A DNA stretch of 39,586 bases from Escherichia phage vB_EcoP_LNA3. Under the pieces are notes generated by a model. It searched no databases. It was not told the DNA's origin and saw nothing but the letters and a program-made list of their open reading frames with translations. The translations under genes were made by a program, and so were the position numbers. Below, piece by piece: positions 3,655-29,663 of the stretch (position 1 is its first letter; every line of letters begins with the position of its first letter). The stretch lies in the sequence record MZ311862.1, one strand, 5' to 3'.

Positions 3655-5937
3655 ATGGCTAGTAATATTGAATCAGCTCTGGCTAATCGGACTATGGGTC
3701 GCGGCAGAGCGCCGGGTAAAACTATCGCCGTCAACTATCAAGCAGCCAACGTTCAGGCTCCGACTGGGGACTCCGGTCTGGCTCGTGCGTTAACCAACTT
3801 CGTTGAGTCTGGGACTGGATTGTACAAGCAGTTCAAGGACGAGGAGAAGACCAGAGCTGACGAGCGGTCTAACGAGATTATCCGTAAACTGACACCTCAG
3901 CAAAGACGTGAGGCTATCCAGAACGGCACATTGCTGTATCAGGATGACCCTTACGCTATGGAAGCACTTCGAGTCAAGACTGGTCGTAATGCTGCCTTTG
4001 CTGTAGACGACGAGATTAACGTTAAGATTCAGAACGGTGAGTTCCGTACACGTCAGGACATGGAAGAGTATCGCCACCAGCGACTTCAGGACGCCGCTAA
4101 GTCCTATGCTGAAGAGGCGGGTATTAACCCTACAGACGAGTTCTTCCAGCGTGGGTTCAACGATAACATCACAGACCGAAACATCGCTATCTATGGGTCT
4201 TTCAATAAGTATTTCAGCAAGCAGTCTGAAGAGACAGCAATGTTGAACACTCGTATTGAGATGAACTCATTCCTGAACGATGGCGACCTGATGCGTTCAC
4301 CTGAGTCTGGCAAGACATTCATGGCCTACCTTCGGGATGGATTGACGACTGCTGCTATACCTTCGGACCAGAGAGCACGAGAGGTCATCACCCAGACGGT
4401 CCGTGACGCAATCCAGAAGTCAGGAGGCTCAAACTTCCTACAGCAAGTCCGTGGCGAGCGTATCACCCTTAACGGTGTTGACGCTACCATCGAAGAGATT
4501 GTAGGACCTGACGTCTTCAATGCTGCTATGGTTGAGGCCCAAGGTACTGAGTATAAACTGGTGGCTAAGTATCAGGAAGACTTGTCGTTAGGCGTTCAGT
4601 CTGCGATTCTTCAGGATGACCCAACCATCGGTCTGGCCCAGATTCAGAAACTCAAGGAGCAGAACAACCTGCTTCAGCCGGGTGAAGAACTAACGCCTCA
4701 GCGTCAGATGCTTATTAATGCCGAAGCCAGCTTACTGGAAGCTGTCAAGCGTAAGTCCGCTGAACAGGCTAAGGAGAACACTAAGTTAATCCAGACCCAG
4801 AATAAGCAACTGGTCATTGACCAAGTTTATCATCGACGTCTGGCTGGGGACAACGTGTCCACCAACTATGAGGACCTTCCGGTCTCTGAAGCTACAGGAG
4901 AGTTCAAGCGTTCAGACATGAACAACTATGCGTCTGCCAAGCTACAGCAGATTGACCAGATGGACATCCCTGAGGCTTCTAAGGACGCCCAGAAGGTTGC
5001 ATTGTTAAGGGCTGACACTAACAACGGTCCGTTCCGTAATGCCTTCCAGACTCTTACTCAGGACGCTGCTGGTGAGTGGCAGGCTGCGGTCATCCGTGGA
5101 CAGTACGACCCAGACAAGATGCAACGCTTCGAGTCTCTTCGTCGTGCCTACACTCAGGACCCTTCAAGTTTTGCTGCTCTGTATCCTGACCAAGCTCAGT
5201 TGTTCTCTACGTTCGACCAGATGGACAAGATTGGTCTGGACCCTCAGACGATGATTGAAGCTGATAAGCAAGCTGCAAGTCAAAGCAGTGAGATGCGCAT
5301 TGAGTCAGACAAGGCGTGGCAGGAGTTGAAGAACGACTCTCGGAATAAGGACCTTTCGCGTCTTCCTACGTCTCTGGACGCAAGTGCTCGTAAGGTCTGG
5401 GACTCATGGTACTATCGTACAGGTAACGCTGACGCTGCAACTCAGCAGACTCAACGCTGGCTGAATGAGAACACCGTAACGTTCCAGTCTGAAGGTTCTG
5501 ATGGTAAGTCAATCGGCATGGTGTCCAAGCACCAGCTTATGGTCGGGGATAACCCAGAGTCGTGGCAGGTTGGTCGAGACATTATCGACACCGCTCGTAA
5601 GCAGCTCATTAAGACCAACCCTTGGGTAGTGAACTCTCAGTTGTCCGTTGTTGAACAGAACGGCTCTATCTTCCTCCAAGACGCTACAGGGACTATTCGT
5701 ATTCGCTACGATAAAGAACTTGTAGGTAAACTCTACCGCGAACAACAGCAGAAGGCACAAGATGCCGCATACGCTCAGGCAGAACGTGACGCTAACAAGC
5801 GAGCGCGTATCGTCGGGACTAAAGCTGCTGGTGACAAACGTCGAGCTGACCGAGAGGCCAACATCGAGAAGCGCGGTGGGATGTACAATGACGTCTCACT
5901 GGAGGGTATCGCAAACACCTTAATCGGTAAGGAGTAA
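3655..5937 (+). CDS. internal virion protein C (gp15)
   Basis: 760-aa ORF at the gp15 position (T7 747 aa); strong Shine-Dalgarno. Confidence 0.85.
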   Translation: MASNIESALANRTMGRGRAPGKTIAVNYQAANVQAPTGDSGLARALTNFVESGTGLYKQFKDEEKTRADERSNEIIRKLTPQQRREAIQNGTLLYQDDPYAMEALRVKTGRNAAFAVDDEINVKIQNGEFRTRQDMEEYRHQRLQDAAKSYAEEAGINPTDEFFQRGFNDNITDRNIAIYGSFNKYFSKQSEETAMLNTRIEMNSFLNDGDLMRSPESGKTFMAYLRDGLTTAAIPSDQRAREVITQTVRDAIQKSGGSNFLQQVRGERITLNGVDATIEEIVGPDVFNAAMVEAQGTEYKLVAKYQEDLSLGVQSAILQDDPTIGLAQIQKLKEQNNLLQPGEELTPQRQMLINAEASLLEAVKRKSAEQAKENTKLIQTQNKQLVIDQVYHRRLAGDNVSTNYEDLPVSEATGEFKRSDMNNYASAKLQQIDQMDIPEASKDAQKVALLRADTNNGPFRNAFQTLTQDAAGEWQAAVIRGQYDPDKMQRFESLRRAYTQDPSSFAALYPDQAQLFSTFDQMDKIGLDPQTMIEADKQAASQSSEMRIESDKAWQELKNDSRNKDLSRLPTSLDASARKVWDSWYYRTGNADAATQQTQRWLNENTVTFQSEGSDGKSIGMVSKHQLMVGDNPESWQVGRDIIDTARKQLIKTNPWVVNSQLSVVEQNGSIFLQDATGTIRIRYDKELVGKLYREQQQKAQDAAYAQAERDANKRARIVGTKAAGDKRRADREANIEKRGGMYNDVSLEGIANTLIGKE

Positions 5938-5942
5938 TAATA

Positions 5943-8900
5943 ATGGCGACTCGTGGTATTCGCAATAACAATCCGGGTAACATCCGGGTAAGTAAGGACC
6001 AATGGGAAGGAATGACTGGAGATGATGGCGCATTCGTCACCTTCGATAGTCCAGAGTCTGGCGTCCGAGCTTTAGGTAAAAACCTGCTGTCCTACGGTCG
6101 CCGAGGTTATGACTCCATCGAGAAGATTATCAACCGATGGGCACCTCCTAACGAGAACGACACTAAGGCTTATATTGACTCAGTGGTGGCTGCAACCGGT
6201 ATTCCAGCTACCCAGAGTCTCGACCTATCGAACCCGGACACCCTGTCTGCTCTGGCGCAAGCTATTAGCTTCCAGGAGACAGGCTCCCGGTACAATCCTG
6301 AAGTCTATCAGAAGGGAGTCGCACGGGCACTCAATGGCATTAGCCCAAAGACTCCACCAGTAAGCGCTAACGTATTTGACGCACTCACGGAAGGACTCAA
6401 GGCTAAACCTAAAGTAGCTCTGGGCGAGAACCTTCCGACCGCTGCTGGTCTAAACATTGAGGGTCAAGCACCTGAAGCTCCCAACGAATCGTTCGGTGAG
6501 ATGTTCTATAAGTCTACTGGCGAGACCATGCAGGAACGAGAGGATCGCTCTACGTGGTTCGGTTTCGGCTCGGCTACAGAAGCTGAAGTGAAGAACTCTA
6601 TGATCGGCGTGGCTATCCGCGCTGGTCAGACCGAGGACTCACTTGATGTCATTGGCGATGTGTTCAACCCTACCCGCTGGAACAACCATAAGTGGTCTCG
6701 TGAGGAGCTGGACCAGATTCGTAACGCTGGAGTTCTCCCTCAGTATTACGGTGTCATTACTGGCGGCTCCCCTCAGAACCTGACCGAGCTTATTAACTTA
6801 GCGCTTGAGAACCAGAAGTTGGACCAAGAGAAGGCCAAGGCTGGGACTGGTGCTCAGTTAGCTGCTGGTGTGATTGGCGCTGGTGTGGACCCTCTGACCT
6901 ACGTTCCTATCGCTGGACAGATTGGTAAGGGTGGCAAGCTGGTCAACAAGATGTTCACCGTGGCTGCTCAATCTGGAGCACTTGCTGGTGTATCAGAGAT
7001 GGCCCGTACCTCAGTGGCTGGTGGTGATGCTCATGTGGCTGAGGCTATCCTTGGCGGTGCTCTCTTCGGTGGAGGTATGACTGCTATCGCTGATGGTTTA
7101 GGCAGAGCTTTAGGTCGTAACACTAACGAGTTCGCTGGACCAGCCATACGTCTGGAAGCTCGTGAGACAGCCCGTAACGTTGATGGTCAGGACCTGTCTC
7201 GTCTACCTATTCAAGAAGGTGAGGAGACCTTTAGTCATCAAGGCGTTAAGTTCGCTGACGTTCCGAATGAGCCGGGTAGTGTACGACTGGAAGATGGTTC
7301 AATCCTGATTGGTGAAAACCCTCTGAACCCTAAGACACGTCAAGTCTTTGACGAAGTGATTGAGCCAGAACGTGCCGCTGCTGGTGTGAACCTTGGTGGA
7401 CTTACCGAGATTGGCCTGAAGCTGCTTCGGTCTGAGAACCCAGAGATTCGTGGAGTCGCTGCTGACTTAGTGCGTTCACCAACCGGTATGCAGTCAGGGG
7501 CCTCAGGTAAAATCGGGACCACTGCGTCAGACGTATTCGAGAGACTTCGTGCTGTGGACCATCGGTTCTACAACGACATCGACGATGCGGTTACTGAGGC
7601 ACTAAAGGACCCATACTTCCAGACAGCATTCTGGCGAGACTCTGGCGCATTCCGTCAGGACATCTACCAGCGTGTGTCTATGGCTATTGAAGACGGAAGT
7701 GGGAACCTGAAGGCTGAACTGACTCCGGGAGAACTGAAAGTCTATGACCTACTGAAGAACCAGTTTGACGCCAAGCGTGAGATGATGGAGAACCCGGCGA
7801 TGTTTGGTCGTCCAGACTCTCAGTCTATCTTTCCGGGTAGCCGCTTCAATGGAACCTACGTCCCTCATGTGTATAGCAAACAGATGAAGGAGCTGTACAT
7901 CAAGGAGCTTGGGAGTCCAGAGGCGTTGCAGGAGGCCATCAAGAAGTCATGGTTGACCAGCTATGCGTCTCGACCTGAAGTCAAGAAACGCGTGGACGAG
8001 GCACTCTTAGAGTCTGACCCTACGTTGACTCCAGAGGGACTTGCTGCTGCGGTCGATAAGTACGCCAACGATAAGGCTTACGGTATCTCCCACACCGAGC
8101 AGTTCGAACGTTCATCCGTAATGGAAGAGAACATCAACGGTCTGGTTGGTCTGGAGAACAACAGCTTCCTTGAGGCTCGTAACCTGTTCGATAGCGATAT
8201 GTCAATCGTCCTACCTAACGGTCAGACCTTCAGTGTCAACAACCTGCGTGAGTGGGACCTTGACAAGATTGTCCCGGCCTACAACCGTCGAGTTAATGGC
8301 GATATTGCTATCATGGCTGGTACAGGCAAAACCACGAAGGACATGAAGGACTTGGTTGAGACCATGATGAACAAGGCTGGGGATGACGGTAAGTTGAAAG
8401 GTGAAGTATCTACCTTACGTGACACCTTGAAGATTCTAACAGGTCGTGCTCGACGTGATGGTGCTGATGATGCAGCCTTCGCTACCGTGATGCGCACAAT
8501 GACAGACCTATCGTTCTTCGCTAAGAATGCCTACATGGGTGTTCAGAACTTAACGGAGATTGGTGGTATGCTGGCTCGTGGCAACGTTCGTGCAATGCTG
8601 CATGGAGTCCCGATTTTCCGTGACCTAGCCTTCCGTAACAAGAAGGTTGGGGCCTCAGAGATTAAGGACCTGCACAATGTTATCTTCGGTAAGGAACTGG
8701 ATGACTCAATCCGTCCGTCTAAACAGGATGTCATTGACCGTCTGCGATCTTACAGTGACCTCGGTCGTGGTACAGCTACAGCTCTGGGGACTGCCAAGTA
8801 TTACACTGGCGAACTTGCAGTACGCTCTCCGTTCACTAAAGTCCTCAACGGTACGACCAACTACCTGTTAGATGCTGGACGTCAAGGCTTCCTGTCTGAC

Positions 8901-13417: not shown

Positions 13418-13677
13418 CGCAGATGGACTTAGAGAAGTTCCTATTGATGCTGGATACTGAACGTGCTCGACTCATGCTGCAAGACTTACGTGACGACTCT
13501 AAGCGTTCACCTCAGCTCTACAACGCCATTGAGAAGCTGCTTGCTCGTCACAACTTTGTGTTAAGTAAGGTGTCTGTGGACGAGAAGACGCTGGCTGATA
13601 TGGAGGCCCTGAACGCAGAGTACGATAAGGTGCTTTCAGCGACTGAGGATAATGACACAGGGTATGGTGTTCAATAA
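13414..13677 (+). CDS. terminase small subunit (gp18)
   Basis: 87 aa with the conserved RSPQLYNAIEKLLARH motif; start overlaps the holin stop (ATGA). Confidence 0.85.
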   Translation: MTQMDLEKFLLMLDTERARLMLQDLRDDSKRSPQLYNAIEKLLARHNFVLSKVSVDEKTLADMEALNAEYDKVLSATEDNDTGYGVQ

Positions 13678-13682
13678 GTGTT

Positions 13683-13726
13683 AGACTCAAGGTCATTACT
13701 ATATGTAGTGGCCTTTATGGTTAACA
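13683..13726 (+). ncRNA. conserved hairpin element, candidate RNase III site (T7 R18.5 position)
   Basis: TAGACTCAAGGTCAT-loop-GTGGCCTTTATGGTTAAC; the AAGGTCAT/GTGGCCTT stem recurs at 22245 and 29603 with different loops. Confidence 0.45.
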
Positions 13727-13778
13727 CTAACTAGTGGAGGCGACTCTGCGTGAAATCTGATAAACCGGGAGGGCAACT

Positions 13779-16084: not shown

Positions 16085-16103
16085 TTAACTATCACTATAG
16101 GGA
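16085..16103 (+). promoter_or_regulatory. phage RNA polymerase promoter (phiOR position)
   Basis: TTAACTATCACTATAGGGA downstream of gene 19, before the right-end region. Confidence 0.75.
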
Positions 16104-16438: not shown

Positions 16439-16676
16439 CGCCATCATGGTAACAATCAACGAAAGCAAGACCTAAGGTCAGTTCATAGCTGACGCTACTC
16501 TACTGACCTTAGCTACTGTAGTCAAGGACTTTAGGTAACACCTTAAGAGAAGCTCACTTAGGGTCATCCTACTTATTGGTCTATCCTAGTGTCGCCTGAC
16601 CTACGGTCCTTGACCTACAGTGGCTGTGGCCTACAGTAGTGACGATGAGTTTTGGACCAAAAGTTTGAGACCACAT

Positions 16677-16853
16677 CTCACAGTTCAAGAACCTCAAGTC
16701 TCCCCATAGGCCCTCTTTCAGTCAGACCAAAGGCCCTACCCCAGTCTATCATAAGGCTGGACCGATGGTCAAGACTTCAGGTCAACGATAGGTGGTGACT
16801 ATGGCTTAGGGAAGGACGATAGGTGGTGACTATAGGTCTGTCTTTGAGTCTCT
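16677..16853 (+). repeat. predicted terminal-repeat region; genome left end predicted at about 16677
   Basis: TCTCACAGTT...ACCTCAAGTCTCCCCATAGG parallels the remembered T7 left terminus TCTCACAGTG...ACCTAAAGTTCCCCCATAGG; ...GTCTTTGAGTCTCTATCTGT parallels the end of the T7 repeat. Boundaries approximate (about +/-30 bp). Confidence 0.5.
16785..16833 (+). repeat. 18-bp direct repeat ACGATAGGTGGTGACTAT, two copies
   Basis: Exact copies at 16785..16802 and 16816..16833, 31 bp apart, inside the predicted terminal repeat. Confidence 0.7.
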
Positions 16854-16870
16854 ATCTGTATCAGACCATA

Positions 16871-16950
16871 AGTCACTAACCTACAGTCTCACTAACCTAC
16901 AGTCTCACTAACCTACAGTCTCACTAACCTACAGTCTCACTAACCTACAG
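16871..16950 (+). repeat. tandem array of 16-bp units TCTCACTAACCTACAG (four perfect copies plus one near-copy)
   Basis: Perfect units at 16887, 16903, 16919 and 16935; degenerate CCTACAG-containing units continue to about 16995 and also occur at 16600..16640. Confidence 0.9.
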
Positions 16951-17103
16951 TCTCAACCATAAGACACCAACACCTACAGTCATAGACCTACAGTTACTAG
17001 ACACAAAGCTATAGACTTAAGGTCAAAGACATGTTAGTCAAAGACTATATCCTATTACACCATGGGGCCGACGATAGCTTAATCAATATTATTTCAAATT
17101 ACC

Positions 17104-17246: not shown

Positions 17247-17275
17247 TTGACAAGAAGTAAGACTTAAAGTAGTAT
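17247..17275 (+). promoter_or_regulatory. host sigma70-type early promoter (T7 A2/A3-like)
   Basis: TTGACA, 17-bp spacer, TAGTAT. Confidence 0.5.
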
Positions 17276-18684: not shown

Positions 18685-18882
18685 ATGAGTCTTGCACTAT
18701 TGATAGCCATAGGCTATGGACTTATCGCCTACGTGCTGGTGAGAGACATCAACAAAGCGCGTGAAGTCTACAAATTCAACTATGTACGTCTGGGCCGCTG
18801 GACTGTACGTCAACCTAACGGACAATTCATGCGCAACTTAGCGAACGTCTGGGATATAGCAACTATTGGGAGCAAACTGTAA
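18685..18882 (+). CDS. small membrane protein (hypothetical)
   Basis: 65 aa with N-terminal hydrophobic segment MSLALLIAIGYGLIAYVLV. Confidence 0.5.
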   Translation: MSLALLIAIGYGLIAYVLVRDINKAREVYKFNYVRLGRWTVRQPNGQFMRNLANVWDIATIGSKL

Positions 18883-19142
18883 TGAAAACCGTATACATTA
18901 ACAAACCATCTAGCCATAGCCGTGTAGAGCAAATAGAGCGTGACATGTTCTTACATCGCCGCATGAGGGCTGAGGGCCATAAGTACGAACTGATGAGTCT
19001 GGCGTTTGGTGGACGACCGATCACTGACGATGGTAAACTTTTAGTCTCAGGCTGGAAGGCGATAGACCAACGGTCAACCATCAAGCACACGACTCACGGT
19101 GACTTCAGCCATCTCAACGCTAACCCTCTGATATGCAAGTGA
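18882..19142 (+). CDS. hypothetical early protein
   Basis: 86-aa ORF coupled by a TAATGA overlap to the preceding gene; occupies the slot where T7 has the gene 0.7 kinase. Confidence 0.5.
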   Translation: MKTVYINKPSSHSRVEQIERDMFLHRRMRAEGHKYELMSLAFGGRPITDDGKLLVSGWKAIDQRSTIKHTTHGDFSHLNANPLICK

Positions 19143-19149
19143 TTCTGAC

Positions 19150-19167
19150 TTAACTATCACTATAGGA
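19150..19167 (+). promoter_or_regulatory. phage RNA polymerase promoter directly upstream of the RNA polymerase gene
   Basis: TTAACTATCACTATAGGA about 72 bp before the gene 1 ATG. Confidence 0.7.
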
Positions 19168-19239
19168 CTCAAGGTCTAAGACTCCAAGTGAAAGACCAAA
19201 GAGACTTTAAGTGAAAGACTAATAACAAGGACTTTAAGT

Positions 19240-21921
19240 ATGAGCGTCATCTCTATTGATAAACACGACTTCTCTGATGTGTCGAACGCCATTGAGCCGT
19301 TTAACCTGCTGGCAGACCACTACGGGCAAGACCTTGCAGTCAAACAGCTTCAGCTTGAGCATGAGGCCTACACAGAAGGCGAGCGACGTTTCATCAAGAA
19401 CCTTGAGCGCCAGACCGAGCGCGGGGAACTGGCAGACAATCAGGTCGCCAAGCCTTTGATGCAGACTCTGGTGCCTAAGATTGCGCAAGCAGTCAAGGAG
19501 TGGCACGAAGGCCAAGACGGGAAGCTGTCAACCTCTCGTCCTAGCGTAGCGTTCACCAAGTTGAGCACTGAAGAGAAGGCCGTCAAGGACCGCTCTATGC
19601 GCATCTCCTGTGAGTCCGCTGCGGTTATCATACTGAAGGTCATACTCTCCAAGCTGGTCAAGCCTGAAGGGATACCGATTACACCTATGGCCTCAGCGTT
19701 AGGTCGCACACTTGAGGACGAAATCCGCTTCGGTCGCATCCGTGACAAGGAGAAGGAGCACTTCAAGAAGGCGATAGCTGAGAACCTGAACAAGCGAGCT
19801 GGGGCATCCTACAAGAAAGCCTACATGCAAGCTGTAGAGGCATCCATGCTGGAGCAAGGCCAACTGGAAGATGCGTGGGGGACTTGGAGTCCGACCGAAG
19901 CGGTACACGTTGGCATCAAGATGCTCGAGATTGTCATCCAGTCCACACAACTGGTCGAGCTTAAGCGTTATGGTGCTGGCAATGCGGCGGCTGACGTTGA
20001 GATGGTCCACCTGTCAGACTTCTGGGTAAAGAAGATGGCACAACGTGGATTCAGCCTTGCGGGTATTGCGCCAGTCTATCAGCCTTGCGTCGTTCCACCT
20101 AAACCGTGGACTGGTGTAGTAGGCGGTGGGTACTGGGCCAAAGGTCGCAGACCGTTACCATTGATTCGCTTAGGGTCTAAGTCTGCGGTAGCACGTTATG
20201 AAGACGTGTACATGCCTGAAGTCTATGACGCTGTGAACATCATTCAAAATACACCTTGGAAAGTGAACAAGAAGGTATTGAACGTGGTGAACATGGTCGA
20301 GAAGCTGAACAACACGCCTATTGATGACATCCCTCAGATGGAACCGCTGAAGCCTGAGGACTATGCTGGTGAGACCGAGGAGGAACTCAAGGCATGGAAG
20401 AAGGCTGCTGCTGGTATCTATCGCCGCGAGAAGGCCCGACAGTCACGCAGATTATCACTGAGCTTTATCATCAACCAAGCGAATAAGTTCTCTCAGTTCA
20501 AGGCCATCTGGTTTCCATACAACATGGACTGGCGCGGTCGAGTCTACGCTGTGCCGATGTTCAACCCTCAGGGTAACGACATACAGAAGGGTCTCCTGAC
20601 TCTGGCAGTCGGTAAGCCTATTGGTGCTGACGGTTTCAAATGGCTGAAGGTCCATGGTGCAAACTGCGCGGGTGTTGATAAAGTCACCTTCGAGGAGCGC
20701 ATCAAGTGGGTGGAAGACAACCACGAAAACATCATGGCTGCTGCTAAGGCACCGATGGATAGTATTGAGTGGTGGGGCAAGTTAGACTCTCCGTTCTGCT
20801 TCCTTGCGTTCTGCTTCGAGTATGCTGGTGTAATGCACCACGGATTGTCTTACTCCTGCTCACTGCCGATAGCGTTCGATGGGTCATGCTCTGGTATTCA
20901 GCACTTCAGTGCGATGCTTCGTGACCACATCGGTGGACATGCAGTAAACCTGACGCCATCCGGCATGGTACAAGACATCTACCGCATTGTGTCTGACCGC
21001 ATTGAGGAGGAGCTTAAAGTCCTGCTGATTACCGGTACTGACAACGAGATGGTCACTCACGAGGATAAGAAAACTGGTGAGATTACCGAACGTATCAAGC
21101 TGGGGACACGAGAGCTGGCCCGTCAGTGGTTGACATACGGTATGTCACGCAAGGTCACTAAGCGTTCAGTCATGACTCTGGCATACGGGTCGAAAGAGTA
21201 CGGCTTCGCTGACCAAGTTTACGAGGACATCGTGATGCCAGCGATTGACTCAGGATCTGGCGCTATGTTCACCGAGCCGAGCCAAGCGTCTCGCTTCATG
21301 GCTAAGATGATTTGGGAAGCTGTGAGTGTGACCGTAGTTGCTGCGGTTGACGCGATGAAGTGGCTTCAAGGTGCTGCCAAGCTGCTGGCTGCTGAGGTGA
21401 AGGACAAGAAGACTGGAGAAATCCTGAAGCCTTGCCTTCCGGTACACTGGGTCACTCCTGATGGTTTCCCGGTCTGGCAGGAATACCGCAAGAAGGATAC
21501 CACTCGTCTGAACCTGATGTTCTTAGGGTCATTCAACCTTCAGCCTACCGTCAACAGAGGTACGAAGAAAGAGCTGGACAAACACAAGCAGGAGTCAGGC
21601 ATTAGCCCGAACTTCGTCCACTCACAAGATGGTAGCCACCTCCGCAAGACTGTAGTCCATACTCACCGCAAGTATGGCGTGATGTCGTTCGCAGTGATTC
21701 ACGATAGCTTCGGGACCATCCCGGCTGACGCTGAGTATCTGTTCCGTGGGGTCCGTGAGACTATGGTCGAGACCTACCGCGACAACGATGTGCTGCTTGA
21801 CTTCTACGAGCAGTTTGAATACCAGCTTCACGAGAGCCAGCGCGATAAGTTGCCAGAGCTTCCGAAGAAAGGTAAACTGAATATTGAGGACATCTTGTCT
21901 TCAGACTTTGCATTCGCTTAA
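19240..21921 (+). CDS. T7-like single-subunit DNA-dependent RNA polymerase (gp1)
   Basis: 893 aa, collinear with T7 RNAP (DFSDV...PFN.LADHYG...; C-terminal ...DILSSDFAFA). Specificity loop at 21541..21600 reads QPTVNRGTKKELDKHKQESG. Confidence 0.97.
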   Translation: MSVISIDKHDFSDVSNAIEPFNLLADHYGQDLAVKQLQLEHEAYTEGERRFIKNLERQTERGELADNQVAKPLMQTLVPKIAQAVKEWHEGQDGKLSTSRPSVAFTKLSTEEKAVKDRSMRISCESAAVIILKVILSKLVKPEGIPITPMASALGRTLEDEIRFGRIRDKEKEHFKKAIAENLNKRAGASYKKAYMQAVEASMLEQGQLEDAWGTWSPTEAVHVGIKMLEIVIQSTQLVELKRYGAGNAAADVEMVHLSDFWVKKMAQRGFSLAGIAPVYQPCVVPPKPWTGVVGGGYWAKGRRPLPLIRLGSKSAVARYEDVYMPEVYDAVNIIQNTPWKVNKKVLNVVNMVEKLNNTPIDDIPQMEPLKPEDYAGETEEELKAWKKAAAGIYRREKARQSRRLSLSFIINQANKFSQFKAIWFPYNMDWRGRVYAVPMFNPQGNDIQKGLLTLAVGKPIGADGFKWLKVHGANCAGVDKVTFEERIKWVEDNHENIMAAAKAPMDSIEWWGKLDSPFCFLAFCFEYAGVMHHGLSYSCSLPIAFDGSCSGIQHFSAMLRDHIGGHAVNLTPSGMVQDIYRIVSDRIEEELKVLLITGTDNEMVTHEDKKTGEITERIKLGTRELARQWLTYGMSRKVTKRSVMTLAYGSKEYGFADQVYEDIVMPAIDSGSGAMFTEPSQASRFMAKMIWEAVSVTVVAAVDAMKWLQGAAKLLAAEVKDKKTGEILKPCLPVHWVTPDGFPVWQEYRKKDTTRLNLMFLGSFNLQPTVNRGTKKELDKHKQESGISPNFVHSQDGSHLRKTVVHTHRKYGVMSFAVIHDSFGTIPADAEYLFRGVRETMVETYRDNDVLLDFYEQFEYQLHESQRDKLPELPKKGKLNIEDILSSDFAFA

Positions 21922-22225: not shown

Positions 22226-22243
22226 TAAACTATCACTATAGGA
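22226..22243 (+). promoter_or_regulatory. phage RNA polymerase promoter (phi1.1 position)
   Basis: TAAACTATCACTATAGGA; by analogy with T7 this region may hold the primary replication origin. Confidence 0.75.
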
Positions 22244-22244
22244 T

Positions 22245-22288
22245 TAGACTCAAGGTCATGACTCAAAGTCGTGGCCTTCATGATTAAC
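22245..22288 (+). ncRNA. conserved hairpin element, candidate RNase III site (T7 R1.1 position)
   Basis: TAGACTCAAGGTCAT-GACTCAAAGTC-GTGGCCTTCATGATTAAC; same stem as the elements at 13683 and 29603. Confidence 0.45.
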
Positions 22289-22316
22289 CCTAACTCACTC
22301 AATCAGGAGCCACACC

Positions 22317-23772: not shown

Positions 23773-23782
23773 CTAAACGTCA

Positions 23783-23820
23783 ACCCAGTGGTCTTCGGAC
23801 TGCTGGGTTTCTTTGCTTTG
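23783..23820 (+). terminator. intrinsic terminator (T7 TE early-terminator position)
   Basis: CCCAGTGGTC-TTCG-GACTGCTGGG stem-loop (10 bp with two G-U pairs, UUCG loop) followed by TTTCTTTGCTTTG. Confidence 0.7.
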
Positions 23821-24813: not shown

Positions 24814-24900
24814 ACCGAGTGAGTGGTGCCGGGAGATGTACGAGAAGACTCTCAACCCGGACTACATTACGTTATACAACCAATGGAAGGAGCGTGGTCT

Positions 24901-25059
24901 ATGACTGACGTAGAAAAGAAATACATCGTGGAGCTTGAGGGTCGCGTTCAGTCATTCGAGGTTCCGGTGTACGCAAAGTCTCTTGAAGAGGCTACCCTGA
25001 AGTCCCAAGAGTATGAGGACGCTGGGTTTGTGGTCGGACGGATTCGTCCTGAGACCTAA
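24901..25059 (+). CDS. gp2-like inhibitor of host RNA polymerase
   Basis: 52 aa from ATG 24901 (AAGGAG 8 nt upstream): ...[33 protein letters not shown] matches T7 gp2 (SFEVPIYAETLDEAL...PAGFEVTRVRP). The track's 24823 start is a GTG with no Shine-Dalgarno. Confidence 0.7.
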
Positions 25060-26281: not shown

Positions 26282-26736
26282 TGACTACCTGTAAAGACCT
26301 TGAAGTTGGAACACGTTACAGATTCTCAAAGAACACCCTGTTGAATAACCCCAGCTTCACTGATGCTGTTTTCGAAAAGCGAGAAGACCATAGCGTAATT
26401 GTGGAGAAGGGGTGGCATCCTGAGGATTATATCGGTGAGACTACCAGCTGGAATGGTCACGAGACCTACAGTGTAGAAGTTGTTGACCAGCCTCAAGTCC
26501 TGCCAGCTTCGAGCGTACCTCCTGTGACTGTGAAGCGTGAAGTCCTGACAATCGACAAGATTGGTGTAGGCCAGACGTTCATCGTCCATGGAAAGCCTGA
26601 AGAAGTTTACGTGAAGATTAGCAACTCACACGTCTTCAACCATAAGCGTCTCCAGATGCACACCACGGACGCACAACGCTTCACCCAGCACCTGAATCTA
26701 GTGGTCGTAGAATTGGTGGTGTACAATGGTAAGTAA
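26281..26736 (+). CDS. hypothetical protein between endonuclease I and lysozyme
   Basis: 151 aa from ATG 26281 (AAGAAAGGAG upstream; TGATG overlap with the gp3 stop). T7 has no gene here. Confidence 0.6.
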   Translation: MTTCKDLEVGTRYRFSKNTLLNNPSFTDAVFEKREDHSVIVEKGWHPEDYIGETTSWNGHETYSVEVVDQPQVLPASSVPPVTVKREVLTIDKIGVGQTFIVHGKPEEVYVKISNSHVFNHKRLQMHTTDAQRFTQHLNLVVVELVVYNGK

Positions 26737-27184
26737 GGTACAGTTCAACCCACGGTCCAGGACTGACGCTATCTTCGTTCACTGTTCGGCTACCAAGCCA
26801 GAGATGGACATCGGGGTAGAGACCATCCGTATGTGGCACAAGCAGCAAGGCTGGCTGGACGTAGGCTACCACTTTATCATCAAGCGCGATGGTACTGTGG
26901 AAGAGGGACGCCCGGTAAACGTCGTAGGGTCACACGTTAAGGACTGGAACTCACGGTCTGTAGGCGTCTGCCTTGTAGGTGGAGTTGACGCTAAGGGCAA
27001 GTTTGAAGCTAACTTCACTCCAGCCCAGATGAACTCCCTGCGCAACAAGCTGGCTGACCTGAAGTCCCTGTATCCTCAGGCAGAAATCAAAGCACATCAT
27101 GATGTAGCACCAAAGGCGTGTCCAAGTTTCGACTTACAGCGCTGGCTGTCTACTAATGAGCTGGTCACTTCCGACCACGGTTAA
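26726..27184 (+). CDS. lysozyme / N-acetylmuramoyl-L-alanine amidase (gp3.5)
   Basis: 152 aa; TDAIFVHCSATKP...GWLDVGYHFIIKRDGTVEEGR...AHHDVAPKACPSFDL...ELVTSD matches T7 lysozyme. Confidence 0.92.
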   Translation: MVSKVQFNPRSRTDAIFVHCSATKPEMDIGVETIRMWHKQQGWLDVGYHFIIKRDGTVEEGRPVNVVGSHVKDWNSRSVGVCLVGGVDAKGKFEANFTPAQMNSLRNKLADLKSLYPQAEIKAHHDVAPKACPSFDLQRWLSTNELVTSDHG

Positions 27185-29434: not shown

Positions 29435-29599
29435 GTGTTTAAGAAACTTAAAGCTCGATACCATCGGTTCATGTACAAATGGTGGAGCGATGAAGCAACC
29501 TGCCTGTCGAACATTCTGGGAGACCAGCGGTTCAACTCTGCGGCATGGAAGAAAGCCAACCGGAAGTTCATGTATCACTTCTTGCGTACAGACTTCTAG
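29435..29599 (+). CDS. hypothetical small protein (gene 4.3/4.5 position)
   Basis: 54 aa from GTG 29435, 8 nt after GGAGGA; the track's 29399 start is also non-ATG with no Shine-Dalgarno. Confidence 0.4.
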   Translation: MFKKLKARYHRFMYKWWSDEATCLSNILGDQRFNSAAWKKANRKFMYHFLRTDF

Positions 29600-29602
29600 G
29601 TC

Positions 29603-29645
29603 TAGACTCAAGGTCATTCATAGCGAGTGGCCTTTATGATTAGAC
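29603..29645 (+). ncRNA. conserved hairpin element, candidate RNase III site (T7 R4.7 position)
   Basis: TAGACTCAAGGTCAT-TCATAGCGA-GTGGCCTTTATGATTAGAC; third copy of the stem. Confidence 0.45.
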
Positions 29646-29663
29646 TAAAGCGGAGGATTAACC

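Follow-up and report, generated by a model that had tools for sequence, protein, structure and literature searches.

The DNA ahead of the RNA polymerase gene (gene 1) of Escherichia phage vB_EcoP_LNA3 carries what reads as a promoter for the phage's own polymerase, which raises the question of whether this enzyme transcribes its own gene and what the short leader between promoter and start codon contributes. Hereafter, the window means the whole stretch of DNA analysed, namely the 39,586 nucleotides of record MZ311862.1. A preliminary description of the locus had set it against T7 on the premise that the phage promoters of T7 lie only after gene 1. That premise fails: the T7 annotation has phiOL at nt 405, upstream of gene 1 though not adjacent to it, and the contrast with T7 was thus overstated.

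The gene 1 promoter and its genomic setting

The window is a complete K1F-like genome of the T7 family (Kayfunavirus), circularly permuted and with the terminal repeat collapsed. The region of 1 kb around the promoter shares 95-98% nucleotide identity with SR04, K1F, vB_EcoP_F and many other Kayfunavirus records. Structural genes occupy 1-16 kb. Near 16676 there is a T7-type left end (TCTCACAG...), beyond which the early region spans ~17.2-19.1 kb, followed by gene 1, genes 1.1-1.3 and a TE-like terminator. The features of this region, all on the plus strand, are as follows.

17247..17275, plus strand: best sigma-70-like early promoter, TTGACA-17-TAGTAT, with 10/12 consensus matches; putative function
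18882..19142, plus strand: upstream early ORF, gp0.38 homologue, its stop codon 6 nt ahead of the promoter
19148..19170, plus strand: K1F-type RNA polymerase promoter, -17 to +6, predicted start G19165; recognised by core match, PWM, conservation and the annotation of relatives
19240..21921, plus strand: gene 1, single-subunit RNA polymerase of 893 aa; Pfam PF00940 (RNA_pol, E 7.8e-106) and PF14700 (RPOL_N)
22226..22290, plus strand: first phage promoter past gene 1, with a canonical T7-type RNase III hairpin (R1.1-like) behind it
23782..23809, plus strand: TE-like early terminator after the ligase gene, a 12-bp stem followed by a T run
24823..25059, plus strand: gp2-type inhibitor of host RNA polymerase; Pfam PF16857, E 6e-20
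26726..27184, plus strand: gp3.5-type amidase/lysozyme; Pfam PF01510, E 7e-17

At 19150-19167 on the plus strand, the 18-mer TTAACTATCACTATAGGA is an exact copy of the promoter core repeated in this genome. With up to three mismatches allowed, the 18-mer has 10 matches in the genome, all on the plus strand, compared to 0.06 expected from shuffled sequences. A leave-one-out PWM over -17 to +6 gave 32.5 bits for the gene 1 promoter and 29.1-36.3 bits for the other nine. These figures bear out the earlier claim of a near-consensus phage promoter ahead of gene 1. From the predicted +1 at G19165 to the ATG at 19240 there is a 75-nt leader; the spacing of about 72 bp given in the preliminary description also holds, as it was counted from the end of the 18-mer. 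Because the promoter starts 6 nt past the stop codon of the upstream ORF, the 97-nt intergenic space consists of promoter and leader only. The initially transcribed sequence, GGACTC, resembles the GGA starts of T7 class II promoters, unlike the GGGAGA of class III. The nine other promoters sit where T7 has phiOR (here at 16085-16102), phi1.1A, phi1.5/1.6, phi2.5, phi6.5, phi9, phi10, phi13 and phi17, and the tenth is the extra one ahead of gene 1. No phiOL equivalent was found between the left end (~16676) and 19150.

The sigma-70-like site at 17247..17275 would presumably give rise to the first gene 1 transcripts. In the corresponding left-end region of EcoDS1, three host promoters are annotated; in our scan, sigma-70-like sites were no commoner than in shuffled sequences. 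Scanning the 97-nt intergenic space revealed no host promoter, unlike T7 with its minor promoter C. As no terminator-like site was detected from 17250 to gene 1, the first gene 1 mRNA could be a product of host polymerase, as it is in T7. The TE-like terminator is the first terminator-like site 3' of the promoter outside the gene 1 coding sequence, and a weaker match of 9 pairs lies within the 3' end of gene 1 at 21884-21904. Pfam also confirmed ocr and detected no kinase domain in the early ORFs that were scanned; the window shows no evident integrase or repressor. A perfect tandem array of 5.2 copies of the 16-nt unit TCACTAACCTACAGTC is found at 16873-16955, ~200 nt inside the inferred left end, and is probably the counterpart of the short repeats near the T7 genome ends.

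Conservation of the promoter and the proposed circuit

For comparison, 80 IMG/VR loci around polymerase homologues were retrieved, and those with a polymerase identity of at least 87% were taken as Kayfunavirus-like. All 20 Kayfunavirus-like IMG/VR loci have the promoter, at -75 to -81 of gene 1. In CR8 (L016) it lies ~110 nt before the gene 1 ATG and was scored at -102 from the start of the tblastn match, at residue 4. No promoter was found at that position in T7-like (polymerase identity 62-64%) or K11-like (58-59%) loci, where downstream promoters begin at +2677 or +2748 and one of phiOL type is found ~2.2-3.4 kb upstream. Repeated 17-mers were also counted, free of any consensus, in the 250-nt stretch ahead of gene 1 of 20 loci, including P483-like loci for which no promoter consensus was presupposed; a repeated motif emerged only in the Kayfunavirus and CR8 loci. 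Altogether, none of the T7-, T3-, P483- and K11-like phages among the loci compared has such a promoter directly before gene 1.

Alignment of 21 Kayfunavirus loci gave a column identity to the window of 96% for the promoter, 100% from the Shine-Dalgarno to the ATG and 88% for the leader body. Compared to the third codon positions of gene 1 in the same loci (80%), the promoter is more conserved than synonymous sites. In GenBank, a 118-nt query of promoter plus leader was covered to at least 80% by 212 of the 221 matching records; identity is 99% or more in 127.

Most telling of all, the promoter differs between lineages together with the polymerase. The two GW1-like loci (L018 and L044) carry TTAAACCCTCACTATAGGA ahead of gene 1 and at six other places in the genome, and CR8 carries GGAAGGTACACTATAGG ahead of gene 1 and at four other places. 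The window polymerase has N at the positions of both T7 N748 and T7 R756; the GW1-like polymerases have D and R at these positions, as in a T3-like locus, and CR8 polymerase has an altogether different specificity loop. Three types of -8 to -12 sequence thus occur before gene 1 (ACTAT, ACCCT and AGGTA), each matching the other promoters of its own genome and accompanied by its own loop sequence. This comparative evidence, by which the promoter appears to track polymerase specificity, is a useful addition of the present analysis. T7 polymerase given the specificity loop of K1F was reported to be active on the K1F-type -12 to -7 consensus and orthogonal for it (PMC3458549). Given the conservation, the co-variation with the loop, the spread in GenBank and this activity of the K1F loop on K1F-type sequence, the gene 1 promoter is almost certainly functional and maintained by selection.

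Several relatives have variant sites. The gene 1 promoter of the Ro45lw/IMM-002-like loci (L012, L013, L014, L020, L021, L091, L141 and L142) contains CACTAAAGG, with an A at -2 that differs from the other promoters of those genomes. An A at -2 is also present in several natural T7 class II promoters, and this copy may have been tuned down in strength. The promoter list of the Ro45lw paper omits it. In Kosakonia phage Kc166A (L140), the gene 1 promoter reads CACTGTAGGACTACAGG, with A changed to G at -3, accompanied by a downstream change of CTCAAGG to CTACAGG that gives a local hairpin, CUGUA-GGAC-UACAG, across the start site. One T3-like contig (L042; 36,051 bp) has two T3-type promoters (CCCTCACTAAAGGGA) at -1569 and -617 of gene 1, within the expected early region; as the contig is short, an early-region deletion may have moved phiOL near gene 1. 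In addition, K11-like loci of Klebsiella phages (e.g. L046 467-482, L080 188-203 and L047 7535-7550) contain (G)ATAACTATCACTATAGGTCT ~57 nt 3' of their own phiOL-type promoter and ~2.3-2.9 kb upstream of gene 1. It is a 14-16-nt exact match to the K1F-type promoter and not to their own AATTAGG(G/T)NNCACTATAGG consensus. Two related TGACTATAGGTCT motifs lie in the left-end region of the window, at 16828 and 17108.

Based on these comparisons, the site directly before gene 1 is likely to be a functional promoter of class II type that serves the phage's own K1F-type polymerase, and the polymerase probably boosts its own synthesis. Since the promoter is Kayfunavirus-wide and none lies at this position in the T7-, T3-, P483- and K11-like phages, self-amplification after a start by host polymerase is the best reading. 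We propose that host polymerase, starting from the left-end sigma-70 promoters, would read through the early genes and the 97-nt space into gene 1. The first polymerase molecules would then bind 19148-19170 and start at G19165, giving an mRNA with a 75-nt, A-rich and largely unstructured leader. Synthesis of the polymerase would thereby amplify itself, independently of the host enzyme that gp2 inhibits. Because the phage encodes gp2, host-driven transcription of gene 1 should stop early, a limit that a phage promoter would lift. Transcripts from G19165 would continue through genes 1.1-1.3 and contribute to class II transcription. T7 gp3.5 lysozyme is an inhibitor of phage polymerase, which by analogy suggests the gp3.5-type lysozyme as a candidate brake on the loop; this gene and the GGA start of class II type hint at down-regulation at a later stage, as in T7.

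The preliminary description had held that the polymerase could transcribe its own gene, and genus-wide conservation beyond that of synonymous sites, co-variation with the loop and the lack of an intervening terminator-like site all argue for this. If the promoter is active, the polymerase gene would be a natural self-amplifying unit, giving a fast, switch-like commitment to middle and late transcription, with the polymerase supply freed from the host enzyme that gp2 shuts down.

The leader and the rival readings

The predicted leader comprises the following elements.

19165..19239, plus strand: 75-nt A-rich 5' leader of phage-initiated gene 1 mRNA; 43% A and 63% A+T, compared to 50% A+T genome-wide
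19179-19199 and 19202-19222, plus strand: two copies of a 21-nt direct repeat, AGACTCCAAGTGAAAGACCAA and AGACTTTAAGTGAAAGACTAA, 86% identical and spaced by 23
19227..19231, plus strand: Shine-Dalgarno AAGGA, 8 nt ahead of the ATG
19230..19239, plus strand: third, partial copy, GACTTTAAGT, which contains ACTTTAAG, fills the spacer from the Shine-Dalgarno to the ATG and abuts the ATG; its other copy is at 19203-19212

The preliminary description had noted two short repeats, each present twice, and this is correct: AAGTGAAAGAC starts at 19186 and 19209 and GACTTTAAGT at 19203 and 19230, and neither has a further copy in the genome, whichever strand is read. A more apt description is ~2.5 copies of a 23-27-nt unit. 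The Shine-Dalgarno is weak, as had been stated, with an anti-Shine-Dalgarno duplex of -5.1 kcal/mol that ranks 38 among 44 genes. As a sign of control this weakness does not stand, for it is typical of early genes: the predicted pairing of the other early genes is -5.5 to -6.5 kcal/mol, to which that of gene 1 is similar. The translational control by the leader that had been proposed on these grounds is not supported, as the leader folds no better than shuffled sequences and shows no covariation, and its Shine-Dalgarno is like those of neighbouring early genes. Mini-ORFs read from the sequence at GTG 19188 and GTG 19211 were also considered and rejected, because they are unconserved across leader types; one is lost in GW1-like leaders, and in the Ro45lw-like type the GTG frame fuses with gene 1.

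The octamer ACTTTAAG, carried by the repeats, pointed to translational enhancement when its copies in T7 were located. T7 has 11 copies of ACTTTAAG on the plus strand, compared to 0.68 expected, seven of which are in leaders or adjoin the Shine-Dalgarno sequences of genes 1.1, 6.5, 7.3, 9, 10 and 17. The window genome has only two plus-strand copies, both in the gene 1 leader. These copies, at 19204 and 19231, give the leader an element of the ACUUUAAG type that adjoins the ribosome binding site, and GGACTTTAAGTATG at the end of the leader is identical to the start cassette of T7 gene 1.1. The T7 gene 10 leader reportedly contains an 'epsilon' enhancer complementary to 16S rRNA, attributed to Olins and Rangwala in 1989. 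The gene 1 leader resembles it in ACTTTAAG, which is common to the leaders of T7 genes 10, 9, 7.3, 17, 6.5 and 1.1. It differs in placement: the motif of the window is placed 3' of the Shine-Dalgarno, ahead of the ATG, and recurs 27 nt upstream, whereas that of T7 lies just 5' of the Shine-Dalgarno. Given the association of ACTTTAAG with T7 ribosome binding sites, an open, A-rich leader that boosts initiation is likelier than a regulatory switch. By this analogy, which draws on motif association and on the T7 enhancer, the leader repeats would most likely serve translation initiation, as ACUUUAAG elements around a modest Shine-Dalgarno in an open leader; a role as a switch is unlikely.

Several alternatives to self-amplification place the function of this region elsewhere. 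One is that the intergenic region serves chiefly in RNA processing or regulation, either as an R1-like RNase III site or through pairing that differs between mRNA isoforms, and this we consider very unlikely. The first bases of the leader, GACUCAAGGUC, are also the 5' half of the three canonical T7-type RNase III hairpins of the window (AGACUCAAGGUCAU...GUGGCCUUUAUGAUUA), at 13684, 22247 and 29605 (regions 13669-13730, 22240-22290 and 29597-29650; motif pattern at 13689, 22252 and 29610), whose positions match T7 R18.5, R1.1 and R4.7; a related hairpin lies at 16474. Furthermore, R1 occupies this place in T7, and an RNase III-type motif does so in a T3-like locus. However, an RNase III site was defined as a hairpin with both halves, AAGGUCA...UGGCCUU, plus a lower stem, and the 3' half GUGGCCUUUAUGAUUA is missing from the leader, which has no stable or conserved structure and was rejected as an R1 equivalent; nor did the strict pattern find a canonical site in the early region (17.2-19.1 kb). 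Compared to shuffled sequences, the leader gave folding z-scores of +0.43 and +0.81, i.e. no better, and the whole intergenic RNA gave -1.3. The candidate hairpin at 19168-19203 had a covariation score of 0.079, below all 500 shuffles, and an Rfam search of the whole window at gathering thresholds found no match. Pairing of promoter and leader is attractive because AGTGA in both repeat copies complements TCACT of the promoter core, and in minimum-energy folds of the intergenic RNA the UCACU core indeed pairs with the leader AGUGA in three Kayfunavirus leader types. This pairing was rejected for the window's type, where it is at chance level (203 of 1000 shuffles as good), and it was not above chance in the GW1-like, Kc166A or CR8 types either. 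Only the Ro45lw-like type is significant: its leader contains CTTTAGTGATA, an inverted repeat of the promoter core TATCACTAAAG that is perfect over 11 bp, with -14.4 kcal/mol compared to -5.5 +/- 1.7 and none of 1000 shuffles as good. The promoter and leader concerned lie at about -97 to -30 relative to gene 1. A specific form, in which the promoter sequence within the read-through mRNA pairs with the AGUGA repeat and the ACUUUAAGU spacer while the phage-initiated mRNA stays open, is quite unlikely. If it were true, a long irregular hairpin would lead to RNase III processing or mask the ribosome binding site in the read-through mRNA, translation of gene 1 would rise once the polymerase takes over its own gene, and the Ro45lw-like complement would be its plainest sign. 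That no structured regulatory leader emerged is a further useful addition of this analysis.

Less probable still is that the promoter and its A+T-rich leader form a DNA replication origin like the primary origin of T7, with transcripts priming the leading strand. The A+T content of the leader exceeds the genomic value, the region after gene 1 has one promoter and an RNase III hairpin without the phi1.1B-plus-AT-rich module of T7, and the leader ends in GGACTTTAAGTATG, as does the T7 phi1.1B-gene 1.1 leader, with a global alignment score of 77 compared to 27.9 +/- 6.3 for shuffles. Nevertheless, homology to that T7 leader, with the AT-rich stretch at T7 5923-6006, was rejected, as the signal is that of the GGA start and the GGACTTTAAGTATG cassette: without the promoter start and the 14-16-nt ribosome-binding cassette, the leader body aligns no better there than at unrelated T7 places, its best score (39) being elsewhere in T7 and the phi1.1B region outside the top hits. 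There is one promoter and no tandem pair, the A+T content is only 63%, and the leader sequence shows just one strong primase-type site (GACCA). A blastn-short search with the leader body found no homologue outside Kayfunavirus. It is unlikely, to a lesser degree, that an active promoter chiefly serves early polymerase entry for genome internalisation and class II transcription past TE, compensating for the few class II promoters of this genome. Transcription-driven DNA entry is established T7 biology. The genome has 10 phage promoters compared to 17 annotated in T7, only two of them (19150 and 22226) ahead of the TE-like terminator (23782); T7 phi1.1B, phi1.3 and phiOL lack equivalents here, and transcripts from 19165 must continue into genes 1.1-1.3. 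On the other hand, it is the leading polymerase that sets DNA entry, and gene 1 is already inside before any phage polymerase exists, so that the gene 1 promoter has no obvious advantage for entry over that at 22226. Moreover, such a role is compatible with self-amplification, and both would coexist. In view of the promoter numbers, the gene 1 promoter may add materially to class II transcription, a contribution that may be the main rival or, more likely, a companion function. Finally, a promoter look-alike without function, merely carried by descent, is hardly credible: the site is more conserved than synonymous sites and kept in all relatives examined, and its specificity bases change in step with the polymerase in three lineages.

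Comparison with known systems

Self-amplification of the polymerase, the reading we prefer, has precedents. The promoter itself is a genus-wide element already annotated in close relatives, and the idea of self-transcription is already published elsewhere in the family. In genomes of Kayfunavirus and Caroctavirus it occupies the homologous place, between gp0.38 and gene 1: EcoDS1 (NC_011042) has a 'phi' promoter at 2244-2266, CR44b (HG818823) has a 'predicted promoter' at 1814-1836, and CR8 (HG818824) also has an annotated promoter. Identity over the 117-nt promoter-plus-leader amounts to 100% for EcoDS1 and 99.1% for CR44b. By contrast, CR8 has another specificity region and a 102-nt leader. 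In the Sparklingdew paper, this 18-bp sequence is one of eight promoter repeats and is located at the 3' end of the gene just before that for the polymerase (PMC13298934). In the accessible texts of those records and papers, self-transcription of gene 1 is neither discussed nor tested, and no Kayfunavirus 5'-end mapping was found in the searchable literature. The value of the window is thus confirmatory, and it is not a discovery.

Among phages with a promoter directly before the polymerase gene, LUZ100 is the one with a mapped 5' end: ONT-cappable-seq located phi1 just ahead of its polymerase gene, and a model of positive feedback was put forward (PMC10134795). It resembles the window in having a phage-specific promoter directly before the polymerase gene, and in the order of events, with a start by host polymerase followed by positive feedback. 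However, LUZ100 is a distant, possibly temperate, T7-like phage of Pseudomonas, for which a MarR-like repressor was proposed to gate the loop, and its 5' end is mapped whereas G19165 of the window is predicted. In Vibrio phage phiA318, the predicted promoter phi-A8 lies immediately before the kinase and polymerase genes and was read as autoregulation (PMC4099482). This phage differs in belonging to an SP6/K1E-like lineage and in that the promoter drives a kinase-polymerase pair; it is a prediction there too.

Compared to T7, the window has the same promoter architecture and a GGA start like that of T7 class II, and T7 phiOL is also upstream of gene 1, though 2.7 kb away. The two differ directly before gene 1, where T7 has the RNase III site R1 and the minor host promoter C and no phage promoter; in T7-like loci the first promoter downstream is at +2677. 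If the promoter is active, the arrangement is a real departure from the T7 textbook scheme, which bears on how the regulatory circuits of the T7 family diverged and matters for K1F polymerase-promoter pairs as used in synthetic circuits. An engineered counterpart is the 'T7 autogene', reportedly described by Dubendorff and Studier in 1991, in which the T7 polymerase gene was placed under its own promoter as a self-amplifying construct. Like LUZ100, phiA318 and this autogene, the window has a predicted cognate promoter directly upstream of its polymerase gene with no terminator-like site in between, which would place it among the self-transcribed polymerase genes.
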